Part shown: in pieces, positions 2,972 through 60,552 of the stretch
How the letters are laid out: each line of letters starts with the position of its first letter
How positions within the stretch are numbered: position 1 is the first letter of the stretch
Assembly (NCBI GenBank): GCA_944371905.1
Contig: CALVYA010000006.1
Location: 5,358-69,357 of the forward strand
Reading direction: 5' to 3'
DNA: 64,000 bases
Source: an uncultured Bacilli bacterium
GTDB lineage: Bacteria > Bacillota_I > Bacilli_A > RF39 > UBA660
Made by a program: the position numbers and the translations under genes
The notes under the pieces: generated by a model
Told to the model about the DNA's origin: nothing
Databases searched by the model: none
The model's input: only the letters and a program-made list of their open reading frames with translations

Positions 2972-3003
2972 TCTCCTTCCGCCATGATTTAATCAATCAT
3001 AGT
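2972..3003 (-). promoter_or_regulatory. Possible rpmE leader hairpin (L31 autoregulatory element)
   Basis: Minus strand CTATGATT...AATCATGG stem directly before the GGAAGGAG RBS. Confidence 0.35.
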
Positions 3004-27485: not shown

Positions 27486-29027
27486 CTACTTTTCGTTAAT
27501 TTCTTTTAGTTTCTCGTCTTTATTAATTCGTTGAAATAATGGTTGTGGATCATTTGTATTATAAATATTATTATTTTTATATTCTCTTCTATTATCACTG
27601 ATATTTAATTGCTTTAAAATATTATCGCTAGTACTAGGTAAAAACGGTTTTAAAAAAATGGCACAAACTCTAATGGATTCTAATAAATTATAAATAACTG
27701 TCATTAATCTTTCTTTATTATTATCTTCCTTAGCTAAAGACCATGGCATAGTATCATCTATATATTTGTTGCTCTTTCTCAATACCTCAAAAATTTCATC
27801 CAAAGCACCACCTATTTCCAAGCGACTCATTTTATCATCTACTTTTTCATCTAATAAATTAATACTATTAATTAAATCCTTATCCAATAAATCCGATTTA
27901 TCTAAATATTTAACATTACCATCAAAATATTTGTTCGCCATAGTAATTGTTCGATTAACCAAATTACCTAATATATTAGCTAAATCACTATTAATTCTAT
28001 CAATTAATAATTCATAAGTAAGACTTCCATCATTAGCATAAGGAATTTCATGCAAAACATAGTATCTAATAGCATCTACACCGAACCACTTTACTAAATC
28101 ATCTGCATACATAATATTTCCTTTGGATTTACTCATCTTATCATTTCCAAATAACAACCAAGGATGCCCAAATATTTGTTTTGGAAGAGGTAAATCCAAT
28201 GACATTAAAAAGCAAGGCCAATAAATAGTGTGGAATCTAATAATATCTTTACCTATTAAATGCAAATCTGCCGGCCAATATTTTTTAAATTCTTCCGTAG
28301 GATTATCTACATCGTACCCAATGTTAGTAATGTAATTAGTAAGAGCATCTAACCAAACATATATAACATGTTTAGGATCAAAATCAACTGGTATCCCCCA
28401 CTTGAATGAAGTTCTAGAAACGCATAAATCTTGCAATCCTGGTTTAATGAAATTATTAATCATTTCGTTCTTTCTAGAATCTGGTTTAATAAAATCAGGA
28501 TGATTATTATAATATTCGACTAATCTATCTTGATATTTAGACAATTTAAAAAAGTAAGCTTCTTCACTAGCATAATGCACTTCACGCCCACAGTCAGGAC
28601 ATTTACCATCAATCAATTGACTTTCTGTGAAAAAAGATTCACATGGAGTACAATATAATCCTTCATATTTTCCTAAATAGATATCCCCTTTATCATACAT
28701 CTTTTTAAATATTTTTTGTACTGTTTTTTCATGATTAGGATCTGTCGTTCTTACAAAGCGATCATAACTAGTATTCATAACATCCCATATTCTTTTAATC
28801 TCTTTTGCTACTTTGTCTACATACTCTTGTGGAGTAATTCCTTGTTCTCTAGCTTTAATTTCTATCTTTTCCCCATGTTCATCAGTTCCAGTTTGAAAAT
28901 AAACATCAAACCCTTTTTGTCTTTTATATCTAGCAATAGCATCTGCTAATACAATTTCATAAGTATTACCAATATGAGGTTTACCTGAAGTATATGCTAT
29001 AGCAGTACTAATATAATATTTTTCCAT
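27486..29027 (-). CDS. metG: Methionyl-tRNA synthetase (short form lacking the C-terminal tRNA-binding domain)
   Basis: HIGN, GTDEHG, Zn knuckle CTPC..CPDC, KMSKS; start refined to the ATG after AGGAGG. Confidence 0.96.
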   Translation of the reverse strand: MEKYYISTAIAYTSGKPHIGNTYEIVLADAIARYKRQKGFDVYFQTGTDEHGEKIEIKAREQGITPQEYVDKVAKEIKRIWDVMNTSYDRFVRTTDPNHEKTVQKIFKKMYDKGDIYLGKYEGLYCTPCESFFTESQLIDGKCPDCGREVHYASEEAYFFKLSKYQDRLVEYYNNHPDFIKPDSRKNEMINNFIKPGLQDLCVSRTSFKWGIPVDFDPKHVIYVWLDALTNYITNIGYDVDNPTEEFKKYWPADLHLIGKDIIRFHTIYWPCFLMSLDLPLPKQIFGHPWLLFGNDKMSKSKGNIMYADDLVKWFGVDAIRYYVLHEIPYANDGSLTYELLIDRINSDLANILGNLVNRTITMANKYFDGNVKYLDKSDLLDKDLINSINLLDEKVDDKMSRLEIGGALDEIFEVLRKSNKYIDDTMPWSLAKEDNNKERLMTVIYNLLESIRVCAIFLKPFLPSTSDNILKQLNISDNRREYKNNNIYNTNDPQPLFQRINKDEKLKEINEK

Positions 29028-29028
29028 A

Positions 29029-29514
29029 TTATTCCTCCTTATTAGTAGATCCAAGTCCACCTTTTCTTTCGTTTTTTATTTCTTCTTCATTATCTATGGT
29101 TAAAAATTTAATAAATATTCCTTGGCAAATAGCATCGCCTTTTTTTACAATGTAATCTTTATCTCCTTCATTTTGTAATTTTAACCAAGCATGACCTTCA
29201 TTATTAGGATTATTATAATAATCACTTTCAAAAATTCCAATTTGATTACACATCCGTACATTATATTTAAACCCCATACTACTTCTAACGACTAACATTA
29301 ACATCTCGTCAGTATTCATATTGAATTTTATTCCAGTTGGAATCTTTTTAGATTCATTTGGTTTTAAAATAAAATCATATAAAGAAAAAAAATCATAACC
29401 AGCACTATATTTTGTACTTCTTTTTGGTAATGAAAAATTATTATATAATTCTTCATCATCACTACAGTCTTTTTTAAATTGCTCAAAACTGATTTTTTCA
29501 AAATATCTAGGCAC
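29029..29514 (-). CDS. dut: Trimeric dUTPase
   Basis: SAGYD, RSS, ESDYYNN, QGIF, RKGGLGST; GTG start after GGAGG. Confidence 0.9.
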   Translation of the reverse strand: MPRYFEKISFEQFKKDCSDDEELYNNFSLPKRSTKYSAGYDFFSLYDFILKPNESKKIPTGIKFNMNTDEMLMLVVRSSMGFKYNVRMCNQIGIFESDYYNNPNNEGHAWLKLQNEGDKDYIVKKGDAICQGIFIKFLTIDNEEEIKNERKGGLGSTNKEE

Positions 29515-29529
29515 CTTTATCAACCTCCA

Positions 29530-29745
29530 AAAATAAAACACAGATAAAACCTCCTTAAGGACGAAATATCCGTGTTACCACCTTAATTCATAGAAAAACT
29601 ATGCACTCAATACATTAACGCTGTCAACGTATTAGCCTACATATCGACTAATAAGACTAAGGAACCATCTTCTGTAATACTTACACTTTTTCCACCAACC
29701 AAAGCTCTCTATTATAAGTTAGTTACATCTCTTTCCCTCAAAGTC
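29530..29745 (-). promoter_or_regulatory. T-box riboswitch with Met (AUG) specifier
   Basis: Minus strand: stem I AGAGAG and GGTGGAA motifs, specifier loop GAAG-ATG-G (29668-29666), T-box AAGGTGGTAACACG (29584-29571), terminator CACGGATA/TATCTGTG plus U-tract. Confidence 0.88.
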
Positions 29746-29781
29746 ATAATAAATATGTATTTTATTATAACATCATTATTC

Positions 29782-41938: not shown

Positions 41939-42388
41939 TTATCTTTTATTATTAAAAAATTTTTTTATAATACTTGAACATTCATCAGACATAATGCCTC
42001 TTTCTATTATAACTTGATGGTTATAGTTATTATTTTGTAATATTTGCTCTATTATTTTTCTGTTATCTGTAATATTTGAATCGCATCCATAAATAATTTT
42101 ACTTATTCTTGCCTGTTGAATAGCACTGGCACACATTGGACACGGTTCTAATGTTACATAAATAATGGTATCATTCAGTCTCCAATCTTTTAATTTTGCA
42201 CTTGCTTTTTCAATTGCAATTAATTCTGCATGACGTGTCACTAACTTTTCTTTATCTTTTTGATTATAAGCTGATGCAATTACTACATTATCTTTAACAA
42301 TTACAGCTCCTACTGGTATTTCATCTTCAATATCAGCAAATTTAGCTTGTTCTAAAGCTAATTTCATAAAATACTCGTTATTATACAT
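41939..42388 (-). CDS. tadA: tRNA adenosine deaminase
   Basis: EIPVGAV, HAE, TLEPCPMC; true start MYNNEY after GGAGTG. Confidence 0.92.
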   Translation of the reverse strand: MYNNEYFMKLALEQAKFADIEDEIPVGAVIVKDNVVIASAYNQKDKEKLVTRHAELIAIEKASAKLKDWRLNDTIIYVTLEPCPMCASAIQQARISKIIYGCDSNITDNRKIIEQILQNNNYNHQVIIERGIMSDECSSIIKKFFNNKR

Positions 42389-42407
42389 AATATCACTCCA
42401 TAAAAAA

Positions 42408-42482
42408 TAGCGCACATAAATAGGAATTGTTAAGGCTGCTATCTTCCGATCCTGACCTGGTTCCAATATATTTATTGCGCCA
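42408..42482 (-). ncRNA. ffs: Signal recognition particle RNA (small 4.5S type)
   Basis: Minus strand GCGCA...GAACCAGGTCAGGATCGGAAGATAGCAGC...TGCGC: domain IV with GGAA tetraloop and CAGG/AGCA loop, closing stem and U-tract. Confidence 0.85.
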
Positions 42483-42523
42483 TATATAGATTAATATATT
42501 TTTTTTATTTTTGCAAGTTTAAA

Positions 42524-44962
42524 TTATAAAGTTTCCTCAATTTCTTCTTCATGTTCGATTGTATTAGCTGTAGATACTTTTTGCTCTTCTTTTAAATTAA
42601 TTAAACGAACACCCTGTGTATTTCTACTTAATAACGATATCTGCTCAACAGCAATTCTTATTACAATACCATTATTAGTAATAATCATTACATCTTCATC
42701 TCCTGTTACAGATTTCAAAGTTACTATATTTCCATTTTTTTCGGTAACATTTAATGTTTTTACTCCTTTACTTCCCCTATGGGTTAAACGATATTCTTCA
42801 ATTGGGGTTCTTTTACCATAGCCATTTTCTGTTATTACTAATACTTGTGAGCATTCTTCAACTACTTCTGCTCCTACTACAATAGAATTATCACAATTAA
42901 TTCCTTTAACTCCTGAACTGCTTCTACCCATGATACGAACTTCTGATTCATGAAATCTTACTAATCTACCATCGCTAGTACCAATAATTATTTCATTATT
43001 ACCATTAGTCTTTCTAACAGAAATTAATTCATCATTATCTTTCAAAACGATTGCTTTTTTGCCATTATTTCTTATATTATCAAATTCTAATAAAGAAGTT
43101 CTCTTAACTAATCCTTTTTTTGTTATGAAAGCTAAATATTTAGTTTCTTCATTTTCATATTTAATAACAATCGTGGAGGTAATTTTTTCATCTTTTTCTA
43201 TTGGCAATAAATTAACAATAGGTAATCCTTTAGATTGACGATTAAATTCTGGTATTTCATAACCTTTCAATCTATAAACTTTTCCATAATTAGAGAATAA
43301 TAAGATATAATCATGAGTTTTCATAGGAAGAATTTTTTCTGGGAAATCCTCTTCGTTTGTACCCATACCCCTTATACCTACTCCTCCTCTATTTTGAGTT
43401 TTATAAGTATCCGCTGGCACTCTTTTAATATACCCCTTATTAGTTAACATAATTATCGAATCTTCCACAGGAATTAAAGATTCATCTTCTATATAATCAA
43501 TTGCTGAGAGATCAATTGTAGTTCTTCTATCATCACCATATTTATTCTTTATTTCTATTAATTCGTTTTTAATAATAGTTAAAATACGTTCTTCCTTTGA
43601 TAAAATATCAGTTAAATCAGCAATTAAAATCTCTAATTCTCTTAATTCAGATTCTATTTTATCTCTTTCTAAACCTGTTAATCTTCTAAGTCTCATTTCC
43701 AAAATAGCCTTAGCTTGAATTTCAGTTAAATTAAATCTAGATTGTAATTGCTTACATGCTTCATCATCATCAGTAGATTTTTTTAATAATTGTACTATTT
43801 CATCAATATTATCTAATGCTATTTTTAATCCTTCTAAAATATGTGCTCTTGATTTTGCTTTATCTAAATCAAATTGGGTTCGTCTTATAATGACAACTCT
43901 TTGATGTTCTATATATTTTTCAATCATATCCTTTAAAGATAAGATTCTAGGTTGTCCATCAACTAATGCTAAAAAATTGATTCCATAAGATGATTGCAGT
44001 GCAGTATGTTTGTATAAATTATTTAGAACTACATTTGGATTAGCATCACGTCTTAATTCAATAACAATCTTAATACCATTACGATTAGATTCATCTCTTA
44101 AATCGGTTATACCGTCTATTACTTTTTCCCTAACAAGCTCCGCTATACGGGTTATCATATTAGCTTTATTAACCATATAAGGAATTTCAGTTACAATTAT
44201 TTGGCTTTTTCCACCATGCATTTCTTCGATAGTTGCCCTAGATCTAATTGTTATTATTCCTTTACCGGTTTCATATGCCTTTTTGATTCCACTATTACCA
44301 AGAATTATAGCACCAGTTGGAAAATCAGGTCCTTTAATATATTGCATTAAATCCAAAACAGTTAAATCAGGATTATCAATAAGTGCAACGGTTGCATCGA
44401 TAACTTCTTTTAAATTATGAGGAGGAACATTCGTTGCCATACCAACAGCAATACCTGTCGAACCATTAACTAATAAATTAGGATACCTAGAAGGTAATAC
44501 AACTGGTTCTTTTTCTTCTCCATCATAATTCGGTGTAAAATCAACAGTATTTTTGTTCATATCGCGAACTAATTCCATACTTAATTTCGACATCCTAGCT
44601 TCAGTATAACGTTGTGCCGCAGCACCATCACCATCTATAGAACCAAAATTTCCATGACCATCTACAATCACATATCTATAGGAAAAATCTTGAGCCATTC
44701 TTACCAAAGCTTCATAAATACTTGAGTCACCATGAGGATGATATTTACCCATAACATCACCAGTAATACGTGCACACTTTTTATATGGTGAACTAGCTGT
44801 TGCACCTAATTCATTCATACCATATACAATACGTCTTTGAACAGGTTTTAAACCGTCTTTAACATCAGGTAATGCTCTTGATACAATAACACTCATTGCA
44901 TAATCAAGAAATGATTGTTGTATCTCTTCTGAAAAATGTAAATCTTTTAAACTATCTGCCAT
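42524..44962 (-). CDS. gyrA: DNA gyrase subunit A
   Basis: YHPHGDS, AAQRYTE, GyrA-box QNRGGVG. Confidence 0.97.
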
Positions 44963-44974
44963 AATATCCCCCTC

Positions 44975-48011
<3,037 letters not shown>

Positions 48012-48080
48012 TTAAATCCCCTAAAAATGCCCATATAACCACCTTTACCTATAACCATAGTCCTCTATACATACATTTAT

Positions 48081-48089
48081 ATTATAGCA
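48081..48089 (-). promoter_or_regulatory. Extended -10 sigmaA promoter for recF-gyrB-gyrA
   Basis: Minus strand TGCTATAAT downstream of the comK terminator. Confidence 0.55.
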
Positions 48090-48104: not shown

Positions 48105-48132
48105 AAAAAGAAAAAAGAGGTCACCCTCTTTT
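48105..48132 (-). terminator. Intrinsic terminator after the comK-like gene
   Basis: AAAAGAGG-GTGA-CCTCTTTT followed by a U-tract. Confidence 0.7.
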
Positions 48133-48577
48133 ATTTTTTCGATATTCTTTTCGTTATCATAGCATCTAACATACCCGCTCTAAGTAATTGATTTTCAAAA
48201 GATAATTTAGAAATATCAAATTCTTTTTCTATGCCATTTTGAAATATCACTTTAGTATTATTACCTATTTTTTCTCTTTTTTTTACATAATTATGATTTA
48301 TCCAACAGCAATCTTCACTAGTATAAGATTTTGTCGGAAAAAAGATTATTTTTTCTGATTCTTCAATAAGAAGTGGTAATTTATAACTAAAATTTAATAT
48401 CTTCTGAGCAGCTTTAATTCTACCATCATATGTACTACCATAATACTCACAATTTTCTTCCATAATGTTAAAAGTAGAAGAAGGTATTAAATATTCTTTT
48501 GTTAATTCTATTACTTTCGTATTTTCTGAATCGATTGGTATTAATGCTATAGTTTCATCATTAATCTCATATGTCAT
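48131..48577 (-). CDS. comK: ComK-family competence transcription factor
   Basis: YEINDETIALIP, CEYYGSTYDGR, KLPLLI, IFFPTKS, CCWIN match the ComK family pattern. Confidence 0.82.
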   Translation of the reverse strand: MTYEINDETIALIPIDSENTKVIELTKEYLIPSSTFNIMEENCEYYGSTYDGRIKAAQKILNFSYKLPLLIEESEKIIFFPTKSYTSEDCCWINHNYVKKREKIGNNTKVIFQNGIEKEFDISKLSFENQLLRAGMLDAMITKRISKK

Positions 48578-48642
48578 AAAGTATCCCCCCATTTCTAATT
48601 TTTTGTAATTTAAATTACGGGGATTATTATAATTATATTTAT

Positions 48643-48669
48643 TGTCGAATTATGTCGAAATATGACGAA
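48643..48669. promoter_or_regulatory. Three tandem Spo0A boxes in the comK promoter region
   Basis: TGTCGAA (48643), TGTCGAA (48653), TGACGAA (48663); consensus TGNCGAA. Confidence 0.8.
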
Positions 48670-48681
48670 TTTTGCATTTTT

Positions 48682-49803
48682 TTAATAAGTTCTTATAGGT
48701 AATACTAGTTGTTCAAGTGTATCATCTTCTTTTCCACGAATAATAATTGGTTTTATTTCTCCAAATAATGATATCTTAGCATAACTAGTTTCAAAAGATT
48801 TTAATGCATCCATCATATATTTAGCACTAAATGAAATCTTGATTTCTTGATCATTATCTTTTTCAATTTTCATTTTTTCTTCTACTCTACCTATTTCAGC
48901 AGAGGAAGATTTTACTAATAATGTATCTCCATTAACTTCAAAAGTAACAACATTTTTTTCCTTATCAGAAGTTAAAATACTAGCTCTATCTATAACATTA
49001 TATAATTCGTCCAAATTAGCTGTAAAACTTAAAATAGGATCTGTTGGCCATAAATTTGATGTATTTGGATAATTTCCATTAATTAATCGTGATTGAAATA
49101 ATAGATTATTATATTTAAACAATATTTTATTATTAAATATATGCATTTCTATATTATCCTCACCAAAATCTAATATTTTATTAAATTCTATTAAATTTTT
49201 ACTAGGTACTACAAAATTATAATTCTCTTCGGCTATTTTATCTAAATTTATTGTTTTTTTAGCCAAACGATAAGAATCTGTAGCATTACATTCCAATAAA
49301 TCCCCTACTATTTTAAAATTAATTCCTGTTAAAACAGGTCTTGATTCATCTGCTGATGTGGCAAATGAAGTTTGATTAATAAGACTGTGGAAAATTTTAT
49401 TATTAATATATATTATTTTTTTACTTTCTTCTAATGAAATATTAGGATATTCATTTTTGTTAATACCATTTAAATTAAATTCACTATTTTCAGTGTATAT
49501 AATTATTTTTAATTCATCTATTACTTCAATATTAATAAATTCGTCAGGTAACTTTCTTACAATATCTAATATGTACTTACCTTGAATAATAATACTACCT
49601 TCTTTTTCTATAGTCATATCTTCGTTTGTTGGTATAAATGTTTGAATAGTAATATCATTATCTGAAGCTGTTAATGTTAATCCGTTACTATTTAATTCGA
49701 ATTTAATTCCAGATAAAATGGGAATTAAGTTTTTAGTAGATATAGCTTTTGATACTTTGTTTAAACTTTCTAACAATATTTCTTTTTTAATTTTTAATTT
49801 CAT
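48682..49803 (-). CDS. dnaN: DNA polymerase III beta clamp
   Basis: PILSGI, SRPVLTG, ATDSYRLA, LVLPIR. Confidence 0.97.
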   Translation of the reverse strand: MKLKIKKEILLESLNKVSKAISTKNLIPILSGIKFELNSNGLTLTASDNDITIQTFIPTNEDMTIEKEGSIIIQGKYILDIVRKLPDEFINIEVIDELKIIIYTENSEFNLNGINKNEYPNISLEESKKIIYINNKIFHSLINQTSFATSADESRPVLTGINFKIVGDLLECNATDSYRLAKKTINLDKIAEENYNFVVPSKNLIEFNKILDFGEDNIEMHIFNNKILFKYNNLLFQSRLINGNYPNTSNLWPTDPILSFTANLDELYNVIDRASILTSDKEKNVVTFEVNGDTLLVKSSSAEIGRVEEKMKIEKDNDQEIKISFSAKYMMDALKSFETSYAKISLFGEIKPIIIRGKEDDTLEQLVLPIRTY

Positions 49804-49928
49804 ATTTATTCCTTCTTTCTTTATTATTATTTTTATTATTAGAGTGGAAATTGTTGAAAACTTATTTTTTCTCTAATATACAAATGATTTTATAAATTTA
49901 TCCTGTGGAAAAATAGTTGATAAGTGAA
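49804..49928. other. oriC, dnaA-dnaN part (probable unwinding region)
   Basis: DnaA-box-like TGTTGAAAA (49852), TGTGGAAAA (49904) and AGTTGATAA (49915), next to (TTA)n DnaA-trio-like repeats at about 49821-49841. Confidence 0.75.
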
Positions 49929-51308
49929 TTATTTAATCTCTTTTTCTAGTATTTCTATAGTTTTAGACAAATCTTTATTTATTGAAATTTCTCTTTCAAT
50001 TTTTTCACAGGAATGCATTACTGTTGAGTGATCTTTTCCTCCAAATTCAATTCCAATTTTAGGAAAAGATTCGTCTGTTAATTTTCTACATAAGTACATA
50101 GCAATTTGTCGTGGAAATGATATATTAGAATTTCTTTTTTTAGATTTTAAATCATCAATAGATATTTTAAAATATTCTGCTACTACCTTTTGTATTTTGT
50201 TGATATCATTTTTTTCACTTATGCCTTTATTAATATAGTCTTTTAAAGCTTCCATTGCAAGATTTAAATCAATTTCTGCTCCCATAATGGTCGAATATGC
50301 AACTAATCTTGTAACAGAACCTTCCAGCATCCTAATATCACTACCTAAATTGGAAGCCATATATTCAATAACTTGCTCTGGAATATATTTATTAATAGCT
50401 TCCCCAGCAATTCTTTTTTTCAAAATAGCAACTCTAAGTTCAAAATCTGGGGGATATATATCAACAGGTAATCCCCAACAAAATCTCGTTCTTAAGCGAT
50501 CTTCTAGTATTTTTAAATCATCGGGAGAACGATCAGAAGAAATTATTATTTGTTTGTTATCACCATACAAATTATTAAATGTGTGAAAAAATTCTTTTTG
50601 TGTTTCTGTTGCACCACCTAAATATTGAATGTCGTCAATGATGAGAACATCAATATTTCTATACTTTTGCTTAAAGAAGTCAACATAACTAAAATTCGTT
50701 CCAGATTCATCTTTCTTATTAATTCCAATAAAATCAGATACAAATTGTTCACTAGTTACATATAAAACTTTTTTATCAGAGTTTTTAGTAATATAATTTC
50801 CTATTGCATGCATTAAATGAGTTTTACCCAGTCCACTGTTTCCATAAATAAATAACGGATTATACATTTTTCCAGGATTTTCCGCAACTGCAAGAGCAGC
50901 TGCATGAGCAAATTTATTACTATTTCCTACAATAAAATTATCAAAAGTATATTTTGAATTTAAGTTTGTATTTAAATATAAATGTTCATTATTATATAAA
51001 CTGTTACTGGTATTTTCCACATGATTGTGAATATTATTTTCTTCTTGAAATTCATCTTCAATGTCTTCTTTTAATAATAATTCAATTTCTATATTTTTTC
51101 CCGTTAATTCTAAAAATGAGTTTTGTAACATTTCCTTATAATTTAATAGGATATGATTTTTATGAATAGCATAAGGAACAATAATTCTAGCAGTTCCATT
51201 TTTTATGTCATACAATTCTGTTTCTTCAAACCAAGTTTGGAAGGACAATGAATTTATTTCTGATTTAATTTTTTCTAAAATGTTAGACCATAAAACAGAT
51301 GTATTCAT
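49929..51308 (-). CDS. dnaA: Chromosomal replication initiator
   Basis: NPLFIYGNSGLGKTHL, IDDIQ, RQIAMYL, GGKDHSTV. Confidence 0.98.
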   Translation of the reverse strand: MNTSVLWSNILEKIKSEINSLSFQTWFEETELYDIKNGTARIIVPYAIHKNHILLNYKEMLQNSFLELTGKNIEIELLLKEDIEDEFQEENNIHNHVENTSNSLYNNEHLYLNTNLNSKYTFDNFIVGNSNKFAHAAALAVAENPGKMYNPLFIYGNSGLGKTHLMHAIGNYITKNSDKKVLYVTSEQFVSDFIGINKKDESGTNFSYVDFFKQKYRNIDVLIIDDIQYLGGATETQKEFFHTFNNLYGDNKQIIISSDRSPDDLKILEDRLRTRFCWGLPVDIYPPDFELRVAILKKRIAGEAINKYIPEQVIEYMASNLGSDIRMLEGSVTRLVAYSTIMGAEIDLNLAMEALKDYINKGISEKNDINKIQKVVAEYFKISIDDLKSKKRNSNISFPRQIAMYLCRKLTDESFPKIGIEFGGKDHSTVMHSCEKIEREISINKDLSKTIEILEKEIK

Positions 51309-51339
51309 CCTTATCACTCCCCCCATTAATACGAATAAT

Positions 51340-51560
51340 TAATACAAATTCATTTTAACTTATCCTGTTGAAAAAATAAAGTAAAAACCGTAAAAAAAAG
51401 ATATCAACAAGTAATCAACAGAGTTTTCAACAAAAAATGTGCATAAATAATAAGAAAAAAATTACTTTTTCACATTTTCCACAAATTTTTATTCATAACT
51501 ATGAATAATGTTATCCACAAGTATGTTAATTTTGTTGATAACTATTTTTAAAATGAATTG
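51340..51560. other. oriC, rpmH-dnaA DnaA-box cluster
   Basis: Perfect TTATCCACA (51511) plus TTTTCAACA, TGTGCATAA, TTTTCCACA and TGTTGATAA; gene orientation switches here. Confidence 0.85.
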
Positions 51561-57795: not shown

Positions 57796-58794
57796 ATGGA
57801 AAATGAAATAGTTTATTTATACTTAGATGATATTATACCTAATAGATTTCAACCTCGTGAAGTTTTTGATGATAAAGCATTAAAAGAATTAGCAGTGTCC
57901 ATTAGAGAACATGGTGTTATTCAACCAATTATTGTTAGAAAAATAGGGACTAAATATGAAATAATTGCAGGAGAACGTCGTTATAAAGCTTCAACTATGG
58001 TAGGATTAACAAAAATTCCAGCTATAATTAGAAATCTTGATGATAAAGAAAGTTCTAAAGTAGCTCTTATTGAAAATTTGCAAAGAAAAGACTTAACTGC
58101 TATAGAAGAAGCAAGAACATATCAAAAAATTTTAGATATTGATAATATGACGCAAGAAGAATTAGCTAAAACTATGGGAAAATCTCAATCTGCGATTTCT
58201 AATAAATTGCGTTTATTAACTTTATCTAACAAAATACAAGACGCTTTATTGAATGAAAAAATATCAGAAAGACATGCTAGAGCTCTATTAAATGTTGATT
58301 CTGAAGAAGAACGTGATAGATTAACTGATTTAATTATTGAAAAACGTCTTTCTGTTAAAGATTTAGAGAATTTAGTAAAAGAAGAACAAAAGAAAAAAGA
58401 TGAGATTAAAACTTCATCGAGTGAAAAAGTAGAAAAAGAAGATACAGTAATTGATAATAGTAAAGTAGAAACTAAAAATAACGAAAATAATTATCCAAGA
58501 ATTAAATTAGATGATCTTTTAAAAGATATTATTAAGGAAGAGGATAAACCTTTAGAAAAAGAAAAAGATTCTGATATAGAAATGTTAGATTTATCAGAAC
58601 CTGATGAAAATTATTATTCTTTTAAAGGATTAAAGGAAGTTACTAACGCTAGTAATAGTATAGATAAATGTATAAATATGATAAGAGATACAATTAAAGA
58701 AATCGAAAACAAAGGATATCAAGTTAAATTTGATGAATTAGATTTAGAAAATAAGCATCGTTTTATTATAGAGATTGAAAAAAGAGAAGAATAA
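57796..58794 (+). CDS. noc: Nucleoid occlusion protein Noc (ParB paralogue) without N-terminal amphipathic helix
   Basis: PNRFQPR, GERR CTPase box, Noc-type HTH GKSQSAISNKLR and ERHARAL; located between rsmG and soj. Confidence 0.85.
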   Translation: MENEIVYLYLDDIIPNRFQPREVFDDKALKELAVSIREHGVIQPIIVRKIGTKYEIIAGERRYKASTMVGLTKIPAIIRNLDDKESSKVALIENLQRKDLTAIEEARTYQKILDIDNMTQEELAKTMGKSQSAISNKLRLLTLSNKIQDALLNEKISERHARALLNVDSEEERDRLTDLIIEKRLSVKDLENLVKEEQKKKDEIKTSSSEKVEKEDTVIDNSKVETKNNENNYPRIKLDDLLKDIIKEEDKPLEKEKDSDIEMLDLSEPDENYYSFKGLKEVTNASNSIDKCINMIRDTIKEIENKGYQVKFDELDLENKHRFIIEIEKREE

Positions 58795-58898
58795 AATAAA
58801 AGGTAGATTTTCTATCTTTTTTTATTGAAAAACATTTAAAAAAGTTATATTTTTTGATAGAATAGTATTTGTCAAGAATTATTGAAAAGGGTGATAGG

Positions 58899-59687
58899 AT
58901 GGGAAAGGTAATTTCTTTGGTAAATCAAAAAGGTGGAGTTGGAAAAACAACGACAAGTATTAATCTTTCAGCATCTTTAGCGGTATTAGGGAAAAATGTA
59001 TTATTAATCGATTTAGATCCTCAAGGAAATACAACGACAGGTATAGGTATTAATAAAGGAGATATCGATAAAAGTATTTATGATGTATTAATTGATCAAT
59101 GTTCAATCAACGAAGCTATTCTTGCCACTAGATATAAGAGATTATTTTTATTACCAGCTACTATCAATTTGGCTGGGATTGATATAGAATTGATGGAAAA
59201 GAGTAAAGATGAACCGACTTTTTCAAAAGGAAAACAATTAAAAATAAAACTAGATACAATAAAAGATAAATATGATTTTGTAATTATTGATTGTCCACCA
59301 TCATTAGGATTGATTACTACTAATGCATTGACAGCTTCAGATTCTGTTATTATTCCTGTTCAATGTGAATTTTTCGCTTTGGAAGGAATTATGCAGTTAT
59401 TGAATACTATTATGATGGCTCAGAAAAATTTAAATCCTAATTTAGATATCGAAGGAGTTTTATTAACTATGTTAGATTCAAGAACTAAATTGGGATTTGA
59501 AGTCGTAGAAGATATTAGGAAGTATTTTAAAGAGCGTGTTTATAATACAATTATTCCTAGATTAATAAGGTTAACAGAAGCTCCATCTCATGGTAAACCA
59601 ATAATTGCTTATGATCCAAAAAGTAAAGGAACAGAAGCTTACTTAAATTTAGCAAAGGAAGTGATTGAAAGAAATGGAAACAACTAA
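58899..59687 (+). CDS. soj: ParA/Soj ATPase
   Basis: NQKGGVGKTT, DLDPQGN, DCPPSLG, EAPSHG. Confidence 0.96.
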   Translation: MGKVISLVNQKGGVGKTTTSINLSASLAVLGKNVLLIDLDPQGNTTTGIGINKGDIDKSIYDVLIDQCSINEAILATRYKRLFLLPATINLAGIDIELMEKSKDEPTFSKGKQLKIKLDTIKDKYDFVIIDCPPSLGLITTNALTASDSVIIPVQCEFFALEGIMQLLNTIMMAQKNLNPNLDIEGVLLTMLDSRTKLGFEVVEDIRKYFKERVYNTIIPRLIRLTEAPSHGKPIIAYDPKSKGTEAYLNLAKEVIERNGNN

Positions 59688-60552
59688 AAGAAGAGCACTT
59701 GGTAAAGGATTAGAAGAATTGTTTAATAATGAGCAGTTAGATTTAAATAAATTTGAGAAACAAATAGTAGAATCAACACCAAAAGAAGAAATAATAGAAG
59801 TTAATATTAGTGATTTAAGACCAAATCCGTATCAACCAAGAAAAGTCTTTGATGAATCCAAATTGAATGAATTAGCTTCTTCTATTAAGGAGCATGGAGT
59901 TTTTCAACCAATAATAATTAAAAAAAGTGTTAAGGGATATGAAATAATTGCAGGAGAACGTCGTGTTAAAGCATCGGGTATAGCAGGGTTAGAAAAAATT
60001 CCTGCTATTGTTAGAAGTTTTACTGATGAAGAAATGATGGAAATAGCTCTACTTGAAAATTTGCAAAGAGAAAATTTAAATTCTATAGAAGAGGCAACAG
60101 CATATAAAAAGTTATTAGACAATTTATCTATTACACAGGAAGAGCTAGCTAATAAGTTAGGAAAAAGTAGAAGTCACATTACCAATATGTTAGGATTATT
60201 GTCATTACCTTCTGAAATTAAAGATATGATTAGTGAAAATAAAATTTCAATGAGTCATGCCAGAGTGCTAAGTAAAATTGAGGAAAAAGATAAAATATTA
60301 TCTTTAGCACAAAAAATAATAGATGAAAACTTAAATGTTAGAGAATTAGAAGAATTATCAAAAGATAAAGAAATCGTGAAAAAACATCATATGGAAAAGC
60401 ATAAAAATAATGAATATCATTATTTGGAAGAACAATTATGTGATAGGTTAGGCACAAAAGTAAAAATTAAATCTAATAAAATAGAAATTAAATTTAGTAA
60501 TGTTAACGATTTAAATAGAATATTAGAAATTTTAAGATTAACGGAAGAATAA
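59674..60552 (+). CDS. spo0J: ParB/Spo0J
   Basis: ALGKGL ParA-stimulating peptide, GERR, HTH GKSRSHITN. Confidence 0.95.
   Translation: METTKRRALGKGLEELFNNEQLDLNKFEKQIVESTPKEEIIEVNISDLRPNPYQPRKVFDESKLNELASSIKEHGVFQPIIIKKSVKGYEIIAGERRVKASGIAGLEKIPAIVRSFTDEEMMEIALLENLQRENLNSIEEATAYKKLLDNLSITQEELANKLGKSRSHITNMLGLLSLPSEIKDMISENKISMSHARVLSKIEEKDKILSLAQKIIDENLNVRELEELSKDKEIVKKHHMEKHKNNEYHYLEEQLCDRLGTKVKIKSNKIEIKFSNVNDLNRILEILRLTEE

Follow-up and report, generated by a model that had tools for sequence, protein, structure and literature searches.

A ComK-family gene in the dnaN-recF slot of uncultured gut Bacilli and a putative Spo0A operator at its candidate promoter

In Bacillus, ComK serves as the textbook switch to natural transformation and to the K-state, and to our knowledge its wiring is hardly known beyond a few cultured Bacillales. 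In Bacillus subtilis, the comK gene is located far from the origin of replication (oriC). This paper describes a ComK-family gene that lies beside the origin, between dnaN and recF, in a 64,000-nucleotide (nt) stretch of DNA from an uncultured Bacilli bacterium (contig CALVYA010000006.1 of assembly GCA_944371905.1, positions 5,358 to 69,357), hereafter called the window, as well as in related loci, and the candidate promoter upstream of this gene, which carries putative binding sites of the regulator Spo0A.

The cluster is located on the reverse strand of the window and runs in the order dnaA (49929..51326), dnaN (48682..49803, encoding three beta-clamp domains), the ComK-family open reading frame (ORF; 48131..48577 including the stop codon, 148 amino acids [aa]), recF (46881..48011), gyrB (44975..46903, overlapping the end of recF), and gyrA (42524..44962). 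The dnaN and recF genes were recognized by Pfam, and the ComK-family gene by the ORF list, Pfam, its homologues, and an AlphaFold2 model; dnaA, gyrB, and gyrA were named from the ORF list and the conserved gene order in relatives, with dnaA at 46-94% identity in 41 loci. Upstream of dnaA, four DnaA-box-like sites, one of which is perfect (TTATCCACA), were detected by motif scanning at 51438..51541, and the GC skew changes sign within the 48-52 kb block of the window, which together place oriC upstream of dnaA, at approximately 3 kb from comK. The directions of the genes on the ORF map diverge from this same region. The DnaA-box matches nearest to comK are found inside dnaN (49064-49072) and between dnaA and dnaN (49904-49912).

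The order, strand, and origin-proximal location of dnaA, dnaN, recF, gyrB, and gyrA agree with those of the dnaA-dnaN-yaaA-recF-(remB)-gyrB cluster of Bacillota, but the window differs from this cluster in having comK in the yaaA slot, in the overlap of recF with gyrB without a gene between them, and in the conserved extended -10, the +1 motif, and the mini-ORF that precede recF. The first-pass annotation of this DNA had remarked that the slot normally holds yaaA, which agrees with the B. subtilis gene order dnaN-yaaA-recF given in an excerpt of PMC10721633. Scanning with Pfam revealed no S4-domain (yaaA-type) ORF in the 119-nt gap between comK and recF, nor among 13 small ORFs of the window. 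The GC content of the host is very low (24-29%), and the sporulation proteins SpoIIR, GerQ, YabP, YabG, SpoVT, SpoVG, SpoIIID, BofA, and YabQ are encoded in the window. Judged from these genes the host is an endospore-former, for which a Spo0A-dependent programme is expected and in which Spo0A is very likely encoded.

The 148-aa product matches the Pfam profile ComK (PF06338) with an expect value (E) of 5.4e-42 and a score of 143.6 bits (cut-off 22.3), over profile positions 3-151 of 152 (149 positions), in agreement with the ComK-like ORF that had been noticed at this place; no NCBIfam model matches it. Translation from an alternative ATG at 48592 would yield 153 aa, which is unlikely because this codon is located inside the G-run of the Shine-Dalgarno sequence and because the homologues, with lengths of 148-150 aa, begin with M-x-YEIN. 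Sixty homologues of about 148 aa were collected at 53-99% identity, two of which bear the name ComK in their source. Alignment A1, consisting of the window protein and 21 of these homologues picked to cover 51-84% identity to it, contains 37 invariant columns in its 22 sequences. Judged from the profile match and this conservation, the ORF is a genuine member of the ComK family of DNA-binding transcription factors and is conserved as a protein.

The AlphaFold2 model obtained with A1 as alignment has a predicted local distance difference test score of 87.2 and a predicted template-modelling (TM) score of 0.83, and consists of a beta-rich core with three helices. A search of the Protein Data Bank (PDB) by sequence alignment returned only one chance match to a ribosomal protein (E 0.22), and Foldseek comparison of the model with the PDB gave nothing at E 0.001 or better. 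The sole coherent, albeit weak, Foldseek neighbours were LytTR DNA-binding domains (3d6w, AgrA, and ComE; E 0.03-0.24, the best at about 0.03 with a Foldseek probability of 1.0), with target-normalised TM scores of 0.50-0.56 for LytTR domains taken alone and of 0.26 for ComE at full length. The fold of this ComK may thus be LytTR-like, which is offered here as a lead. The name of competence regulator is used as a family name and is not meant to imply a function in DNA uptake; none of the late competence genes comG, comE, comF, dprA, and ssbB is present within the 64-kb window, and a scan of the window for type-I K-boxes gave one match, inside a coding region, where 0.32 were expected.

For the analysis of conservation, species-representative genomes were searched with A1 via two peptide patterns, by which only this ComK subfamily was sampled, and synteny at the 43 loci returned (L001-L043) was read by tblastn with six proteins of the window. 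In this survey of relatives, which the first-pass annotation had advised, dnaA, dnaN, and comK were found on one strand in 41 of the 43 loci. The gene next after comK is recF in 38 of these 41, the remaining three (L005, L020, and L037) ending at a contig edge before it; recF is only partly present in L021, and gyrB and gyrA come next wherever the contig goes on. The two exceptions are the cultured Fictibacillus species L041 and L042 (28-29% identity), in which comK has other neighbours, and of which the 171-aa ComK of L041 also matches the Pfam ComK family. All 41 clade loci stem from metagenome-assembled genomes, which are titled mostly 'Bacilli bacterium' and in some cases Candidatus Faecenecus, Coprovivens, or Ventrenecus, names that in the NCBI taxonomy are resolved to Bacilli or Bacillota at best. 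A literature search, outside of which most subscription journals fell, found no description of the dnaN-comK-recF arrangement.

The identity of ComK to that of the window ranges from 37 to 92% across the clade loci, and the lowest values for the neighbouring products are 46% for DnaA and DnaN and 66% for GyrB. ComK identity correlates by rank with that of DnaN (rho 0.91, n=41), RecF (0.92, n=37), DnaA (0.83, n=41), GyrA (0.75, n=32), and GyrB (0.60, n=36). This tracking of the neighbours by ComK divergence points to a single old insertion followed by vertical inheritance. The slot is too small for yaaA in every clade locus. Additional ORFs of 146-150 aa are present between comK and recF in L017 (6542-6994) and L025 (6588-7028), and a hydrophobic 144-aa ORF is present between dnaN and comK in L034 (5474-5908); none of the three matches a Pfam family. 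Five of the loci (L018, L019, L026, L029, and L030) are titled Muribaculaceae or Bacteroidaceae, yet carry the Bacillota-type dnaA-dnaN-comK-recF cluster with DnaN at 49-69% identity to that of the window, and these bins are probably mislabelled or mixed. In L023 and L026, ComK is 176-177 aa long with a lysine-rich C-terminal tail, and only in these two loci are DnaA-box-like sequences found about 40-60 nt upstream of comK (TGTGGATAA in L023, GTGGATAA in L026).

The region upstream of comK in the window contains, at 48643..48669 on the reverse strand, three tandem TTCGNCA boxes (TTCGTCA, TTCGACA, and TTCGACA, separated by tat and taa) with 10-bp phasing, which form a putative Spo0A operator of the comK promoter. 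Read as its reverse complement, the motif TTCGNCA equals the Spo0A box consensus TGNCGAA, which is given in an excerpt of PMC7643835 together with the conservation of the base-contacting residues of Spo0A between Bacillus and Clostridium, and all three boxes of the window match it at 7 of 7 positions. When at most one mismatch is allowed, the tandem pattern TTCGNCA-N3-TTCGNCA is found only at this place in the 64 kb, with two overlapping matches where 0.07 were expected, and two matches were obtained in none of 100 shuffles. Spo0A is known to bind tandem boxes with 3-bp spacers.

Conservation of the boxes was assessed in 42 sequences, i.e., the window and the 41 clade loci. The dnaN-comK spacers of these sequences, with a total length of 5,140 nt, contain 44 boxes on the forward strand (8.6 per kb) and a single box in reverse orientation, as compared to a background of 0.11 forward and 0.14 reverse boxes per kb in the 474,929 nt of these sequences that lie outside the spacers. 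The approximately 70-fold enrichment is thus strand-specific. At least one strict box is present in 30 of the 42 sequences and at least two in 12, adjacent boxes being spaced by 10 or 20 nt, and a relaxed pattern with one variable position detects a box in 35 sequences. The CG core of the boxes is kept in loci of which the ComK is only 37-45% identical to that of the window. Moreover, in L034 the box remains 67 nt before the comK start despite the ORF that is inserted after dnaN, which indicates that the element belongs to comK and not to dnaN. Assignment of the boxes as DnaA boxes was rejected, as they do not contain the CACA core of the DnaA-box consensus and the spacer of the window has no DnaA-box match, and they do not resemble the parS or Noc site motifs, which were rejected likewise.

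The candidate -10 hexamer of the window, TATAAT at 48626..48631 (reverse strand), follows the proximal box at a distance of 11 nt and the middle box at 21 nt, and a canonical -35 hexamer is not found; its function as a promoter is proposed from the sequence. A TAnnnT hexamer at exactly 11 nt past the proximal box is present in 17 of the 42 sequences, often preceded by TG. In the distant group with a single box, a distance of 16 nt separates that box from TATGNT, or one of 21 nt from a hexamer with a TG extension. In B. subtilis, ComK activates its own gene via ComK boxes with the paired consensus AAAA-N5-TTTT. Such boxes, with up to 2 mismatches and within 250 nt upstream of comK, were found in 2 of the 42 sequences as compared to 5% of random 250-nt windows, and a single AT-box within the same distance in 5 of 42 as compared to a background of 10%. 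A classical auto-activation loop is therefore not evident, and the ComK of this clade may read a motif other than the K-box.

The comparison with B. subtilis reveals both likeness and difference. The two ComK proteins belong to the same family with a full-length profile match, and both are small stand-alone proteins, but the window ComK has 148 aa and that of B. subtilis about 190 aa (171 aa in the Fictibacillus L041), and comK of the window is located between dnaN and recF beside oriC and has no B. subtilis-type ComK boxes upstream. An excerpt of PMC3297582 describes direct binding of phosphorylated Spo0A (Spo0A~P) to the B. subtilis comK promoter, at five sites of which three are read as activating and two as repressing, and which deviate from the consensus at no more than 2 of 7 positions each (sites A1 and A3 at one position each); the putative Spo0A-type boxes described here are instead perfect, tandem, and placed over the -35 region. 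In this respect they resemble spoIIG and spoIIE, which are Spo0A-dependent promoters of the sigma-A type (excerpt of PMC12090719). As in spoIIG and spoIIE, the boxes of the window overlap a weak or displaced -35 region. Those two promoters have spacers of 21-22 bp with 0A boxes over the -35 region, and the distance of 21 nt between the middle box and the -10 of the window is like these over-long spacers. The window differs from them in the third box, which falls inside the spacer, 11 nt away from the -10, and in its downstream gene, which encodes a ComK-family regulator and not a sporulation sigma factor or a phosphatase operon. A combined literature search on Spo0A, comK, and the 0A box, within the same limits on journals, returned nothing.

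The first-pass annotation had described the absence of an obvious terminator after dnaN and the presence of one after comK, and both were recovered by consensus scanning of the window. In the 104-nt dnaN-comK spacer no terminator-like site was found, and the comK stop codon is overlapped by an intrinsic-terminator-like hairpin plus T-run at 48113..48132 (reverse strand). The Rfam family sraA, the sole sub-threshold match in the leaders, which overlaps the latter terminator, was dismissed at 27 bits against a gathering score of 56. Among the 42 sequences, scanned for a hairpin plus T-run, a terminator-like site after comK was detected in 24, a scan that undercounts hairpins with loops of more than 8 nt. 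In a distant sub-clade (L031, L033-L037, L039, and L040), no separate comK terminator is found and a hairpin (AGGTATA...TATACCT) plus T-run is located just after the -10 of recF, so that the comK terminator and the start of recF seem to overlap there, or the hairpin acts as a recF attenuator.

A terminator-like hairpin between dnaN and comK is also present in 24 of the 42 sequences. In 19 of these (L012, L015, L020, L023, L026-L029, L031-L040, and L043) it directly follows the dnaN stop codon, and in the other five (L009, L013, L016, L017, and L025) the hairpin plus T-run holds the TG-extended -10 of comK in its loop, by which it would form in RNA derived from dnaN and not in RNA begun at the comK promoter. 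The scan detected no such hairpin in the window and in L001-L008, L010, L011, L014, L018, L019, L021, L022, L024, and L030. For the window's group, a different barrier to expression from dnaN-derived RNA is predicted in the 5' leader of comK, as a UCCCC(C)G sequence located 1-3 nt after the -10 is predicted to pair with the Shine-Dalgarno G-run. In the window (48585..48623, reverse strand), RNA folding pairs UCCCCG (48623-48618) with the GGGGGG of the Shine-Dalgarno sequence (48590-48585), and the helix encloses the palindrome GTAATTTAAATTAC (48618-48605). The RNA from 48627 to 48572 folds at -12.7 kcal/mol (z -2.3), which was equalled by 4 of 200 shuffles, and in RNA begun at 48618 the pairing is lost and only -4.4 kcal/mol is left. 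A CodY box in the palindrome was considered and dropped, as it matched about 9 of 15 positions of the consensus by eye, and Rfam has no match in the leaders of comK and recF. Read-through from dnaN is physically possible in the window; it does not represent the conserved arrangement, and the resulting RNA may be translationally silent.

The extended -10 that had been ascribed to recF was confirmed as TGcTATAAT at 48081..48089 (reverse strand), preceding the recF-gyrB-gyrA unit, and an element of the type TGnTAnAAT proved general, being present upstream of recF in 40 of the 42 sequences. At about +1 of the recF transcript (48058..48074, reverse strand) a motif is located that is nearly invariant among the relatives, reading GTATGTATAGAGGACTA in the window and AGGTATAGGAGTA in distant loci. 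A second copy was not found in the window, so that a regulon is not indicated within these 64 kb. Rfam does not match the motif, and the recF leader of the nearer group yielded no conserved fold with RNAalifold. The motif could be bound by a protein or could form, for the gyrase operon, a start region that is sensitive to supercoiling. Between this motif and recF, an 8-codon mini-ORF (48008..48034, reverse strand), with its own ribosome site (AAAGGTGG) and a stop codon that overlaps the recF start (ATGA), is kept in position in the nearer relatives with a varying peptide, and could serve translational coupling or be a remnant of a lost yaaA.

The interpretation that is probably correct is that of a vertically inherited ComK-family regulator in the dnaN-recF slot that is transcribed from its own, Spo0A-gated promoter. 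According to this model, a ComK gene would have entered the slot in the ancestor of these uncultured gut Bacilli, a deep clade of endospore-formers with very low GC content, and would have been passed on vertically ever since in the position of the B. subtilis yaaA. The gene would constitute its own transcription unit, with a promoter that has no canonical -35 and on which one to three Spo0A-type boxes lie along the same face of the helix, with its own strong Shine-Dalgarno sequence, and, in the window, with its own terminator. Phosphorylated Spo0A, the master regulator of stationary phase and sporulation, would bind the boxes and gate comK transcription, such that comK would report the developmental state and not the activity of the dnaA-dnaN promoter, and in read-through RNA from dnaN, in the sub-clade of the window, the ribosome-binding site is predicted to be hidden. 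Activation is favoured over repression, which may also apply, because the sigma-A promoters spoIIG and spoIIE have a similar layout; the transcription start and the targets of ComK are likewise proposed from sequence.

Several observations weigh against a Spo0A-gated promoter of this kind. Single TTCGNCA boxes are not enriched in the window (15 as compared to 10.2 expected), so that the case depends on the array and its conservation, and the related sequences in which it is conserved share ancestry. Even with the relaxed pattern, seven of the 42 sequences (L011, L017, L020, L021, L022, L024, and L027) have no box. A spo0A gene is not present in the 64-kb window. The repressing box R1 of the B. 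subtilis comK promoter overlaps the -35 (excerpt of PMC3297582), by which the sign of regulation could go either way in this clade as well, and the argument for activation leans on the spoIIG and spoIIE spacing. In seven distant loci, TCGACA is located 16 nt from TATGNT, such that the box could be a mere -35-like hexamer. The window and at least eight close relatives have no terminator after dnaN, which makes co-transcription with dnaN possible there, and in alignment A2 the changes in the leader helix are one-sided or wobble, without a two-sided compensatory change, by which the covariation support is weak and the support for the anti-Shine-Dalgarno helix is thermodynamic only.

The view that the location has no regulatory meaning is tentative, yet it deserves serious consideration. 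A ComK gene would have arrived once in the slot, which yaaA had vacated or shared with it, and would have been kept there only because the dnaA-gyrA cluster rarely rearranges. Passive vertical inheritance would produce the observed tracking of the neighbours by ComK divergence, the cluster tolerates other insertions, as the ORFs of L017, L025, and L034 illustrate, and comK, having a promoter and a terminator of its own, can do without the adjacent genes. For a neutral passenger, being retained in 41 of 41 loci with DnaA identity down to 46% is long, an argument that is weak because the synteny of this cluster is generally very stable. The origin-proximal position in all 41 loci makes a dosage or position effect possible, and it was in this direction that the first-pass annotation had gone, by proposing that comK may be coupled to dnaA-dnaN transcription and origin dosage. 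In its full form, with comK mainly the third gene of a dnaA-dnaN-comK operon, the level of which follows DnaA autoregulation and origin copy number and thereby ties DNA uptake to replication, this proposal is unlikely. The spacer without a terminator-like site in the window and in the close relatives L001-L008, the shared strand at about 3 kb from oriC, and the slot that is kept in 41 of 41 loci are in its favour, and these parts of the proposal stood. The coupling itself did not fare as well, as in 24 of 42 sequences a terminator-like hairpin follows dnaN or spans the comK -10, the conserved boxes and -10 stay linked to comK, also in L034, the read-through RNA is predicted to sequester the Shine-Dalgarno sequence, and the spacer of the window has no DnaA-box match. 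A member of the operon would be recognized by a conserved lack of both a terminator before it and a promoter of its own, and what was found is a conserved candidate promoter and the hairpin in 24 of 42 sequences.

It is rather improbable that the protein which recognizes the TTCGACA repeats is not Spo0A but another regulator, such as ComK itself in autoregulation, another response regulator that recognizes direct repeats, or SpoIIID, or that the box of single-box loci is a -35-like hexamer. The direct-repeat layout would suit many winged-helix or LytTR-type regulators, and SpoIIID is encoded in the window; for binding by ComK itself, LytTR domains are the only coherent PDB neighbours of the ComK model, but this similarity is weak, with no PDB match at E 0.001, and B. 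subtilis-type ComK boxes are absent upstream (2 of 42 as compared to a 5% background). As to the hexamer, TCGACA shares five of six positions with TTGACA at 16 nt from TATGNT in the seven distant loci, but the CG core, dispensable for a -35, persists in loci with a ComK identity of 37-45%. For Spo0A speaks the agreement of the three window boxes with its consensus at 7 of 7 positions. An extension of the Spo0A-gated model, which has only a slim chance of being correct, envisages an origin-tethered developmental ComK that high Spo0A~P would directly turn on at the entry into sporulation, without an auto-activation loop. Its gene would be kept at less than 3 kb from oriC so as to let gene dose and early forespore capture follow the state of the chromosome; the targets of this ComK would be chromosome-handling genes, e.g., recF-gyrB-gyrA with the +1 motif, instead of or besides genes for DNA uptake.

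Besides the origin cluster, the window contains several features that are recorded here in their own right. Many sporulation genes (spoIIR, spoIIID, bofA, yabP, yabQ, yabG, spoVT, spoVG, and gerQ) are located less than 50 kb from the origin, and on the far side of oriC, at 57796-60552 (forward strand), a gene for a ParA-type ATPase is located between two ParB-family genes, in the usual noc-soj-spo0J layout. A T-box leader (29554-29750, reverse strand; 97.6 bits) precedes a 170-aa ORF with a dUTPase domain (29029-29541), which overlaps the start of the methionyl-tRNA synthetase gene (27486-29060); such a placement of a dUTPase-like ORF, between a T-box and metS, is unusual, barring an error in the metS start or in the ORF call. 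The small signal recognition particle (SRP) RNA (42393-42491, reverse strand; 68.1 bits) overlaps the 5' part of a called deaminase ORF (41939-42466, TTG start), so that the real start of this tadA-like gene must be further downstream. An L31-Firmicutes ribosomal-protein leader (2973-3002, reverse strand) is found directly upstream of rpmE (2753-2965).

The data show that a short ComK occupies the same place within the best-conserved gene cluster of the chromosome throughout a lineage of uncultured, spore-forming gut bacteria. In case this location represents frozen synteny, it would still serve as a lineage marker and as a caution against inferring operon coupling from a single genome. If the Spo0A-gated promoter is real, it would provide a simple and testable circuit from Spo0A~P to ComK in organisms that are not yet cultivable, and a natural case for asking whether the origin-proximal placement of a fate regulator matters. 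Moreover, these gut Bacilli with their reduced genomes may then be naturally transformable, or may have a K-state that is linked to sporulation.

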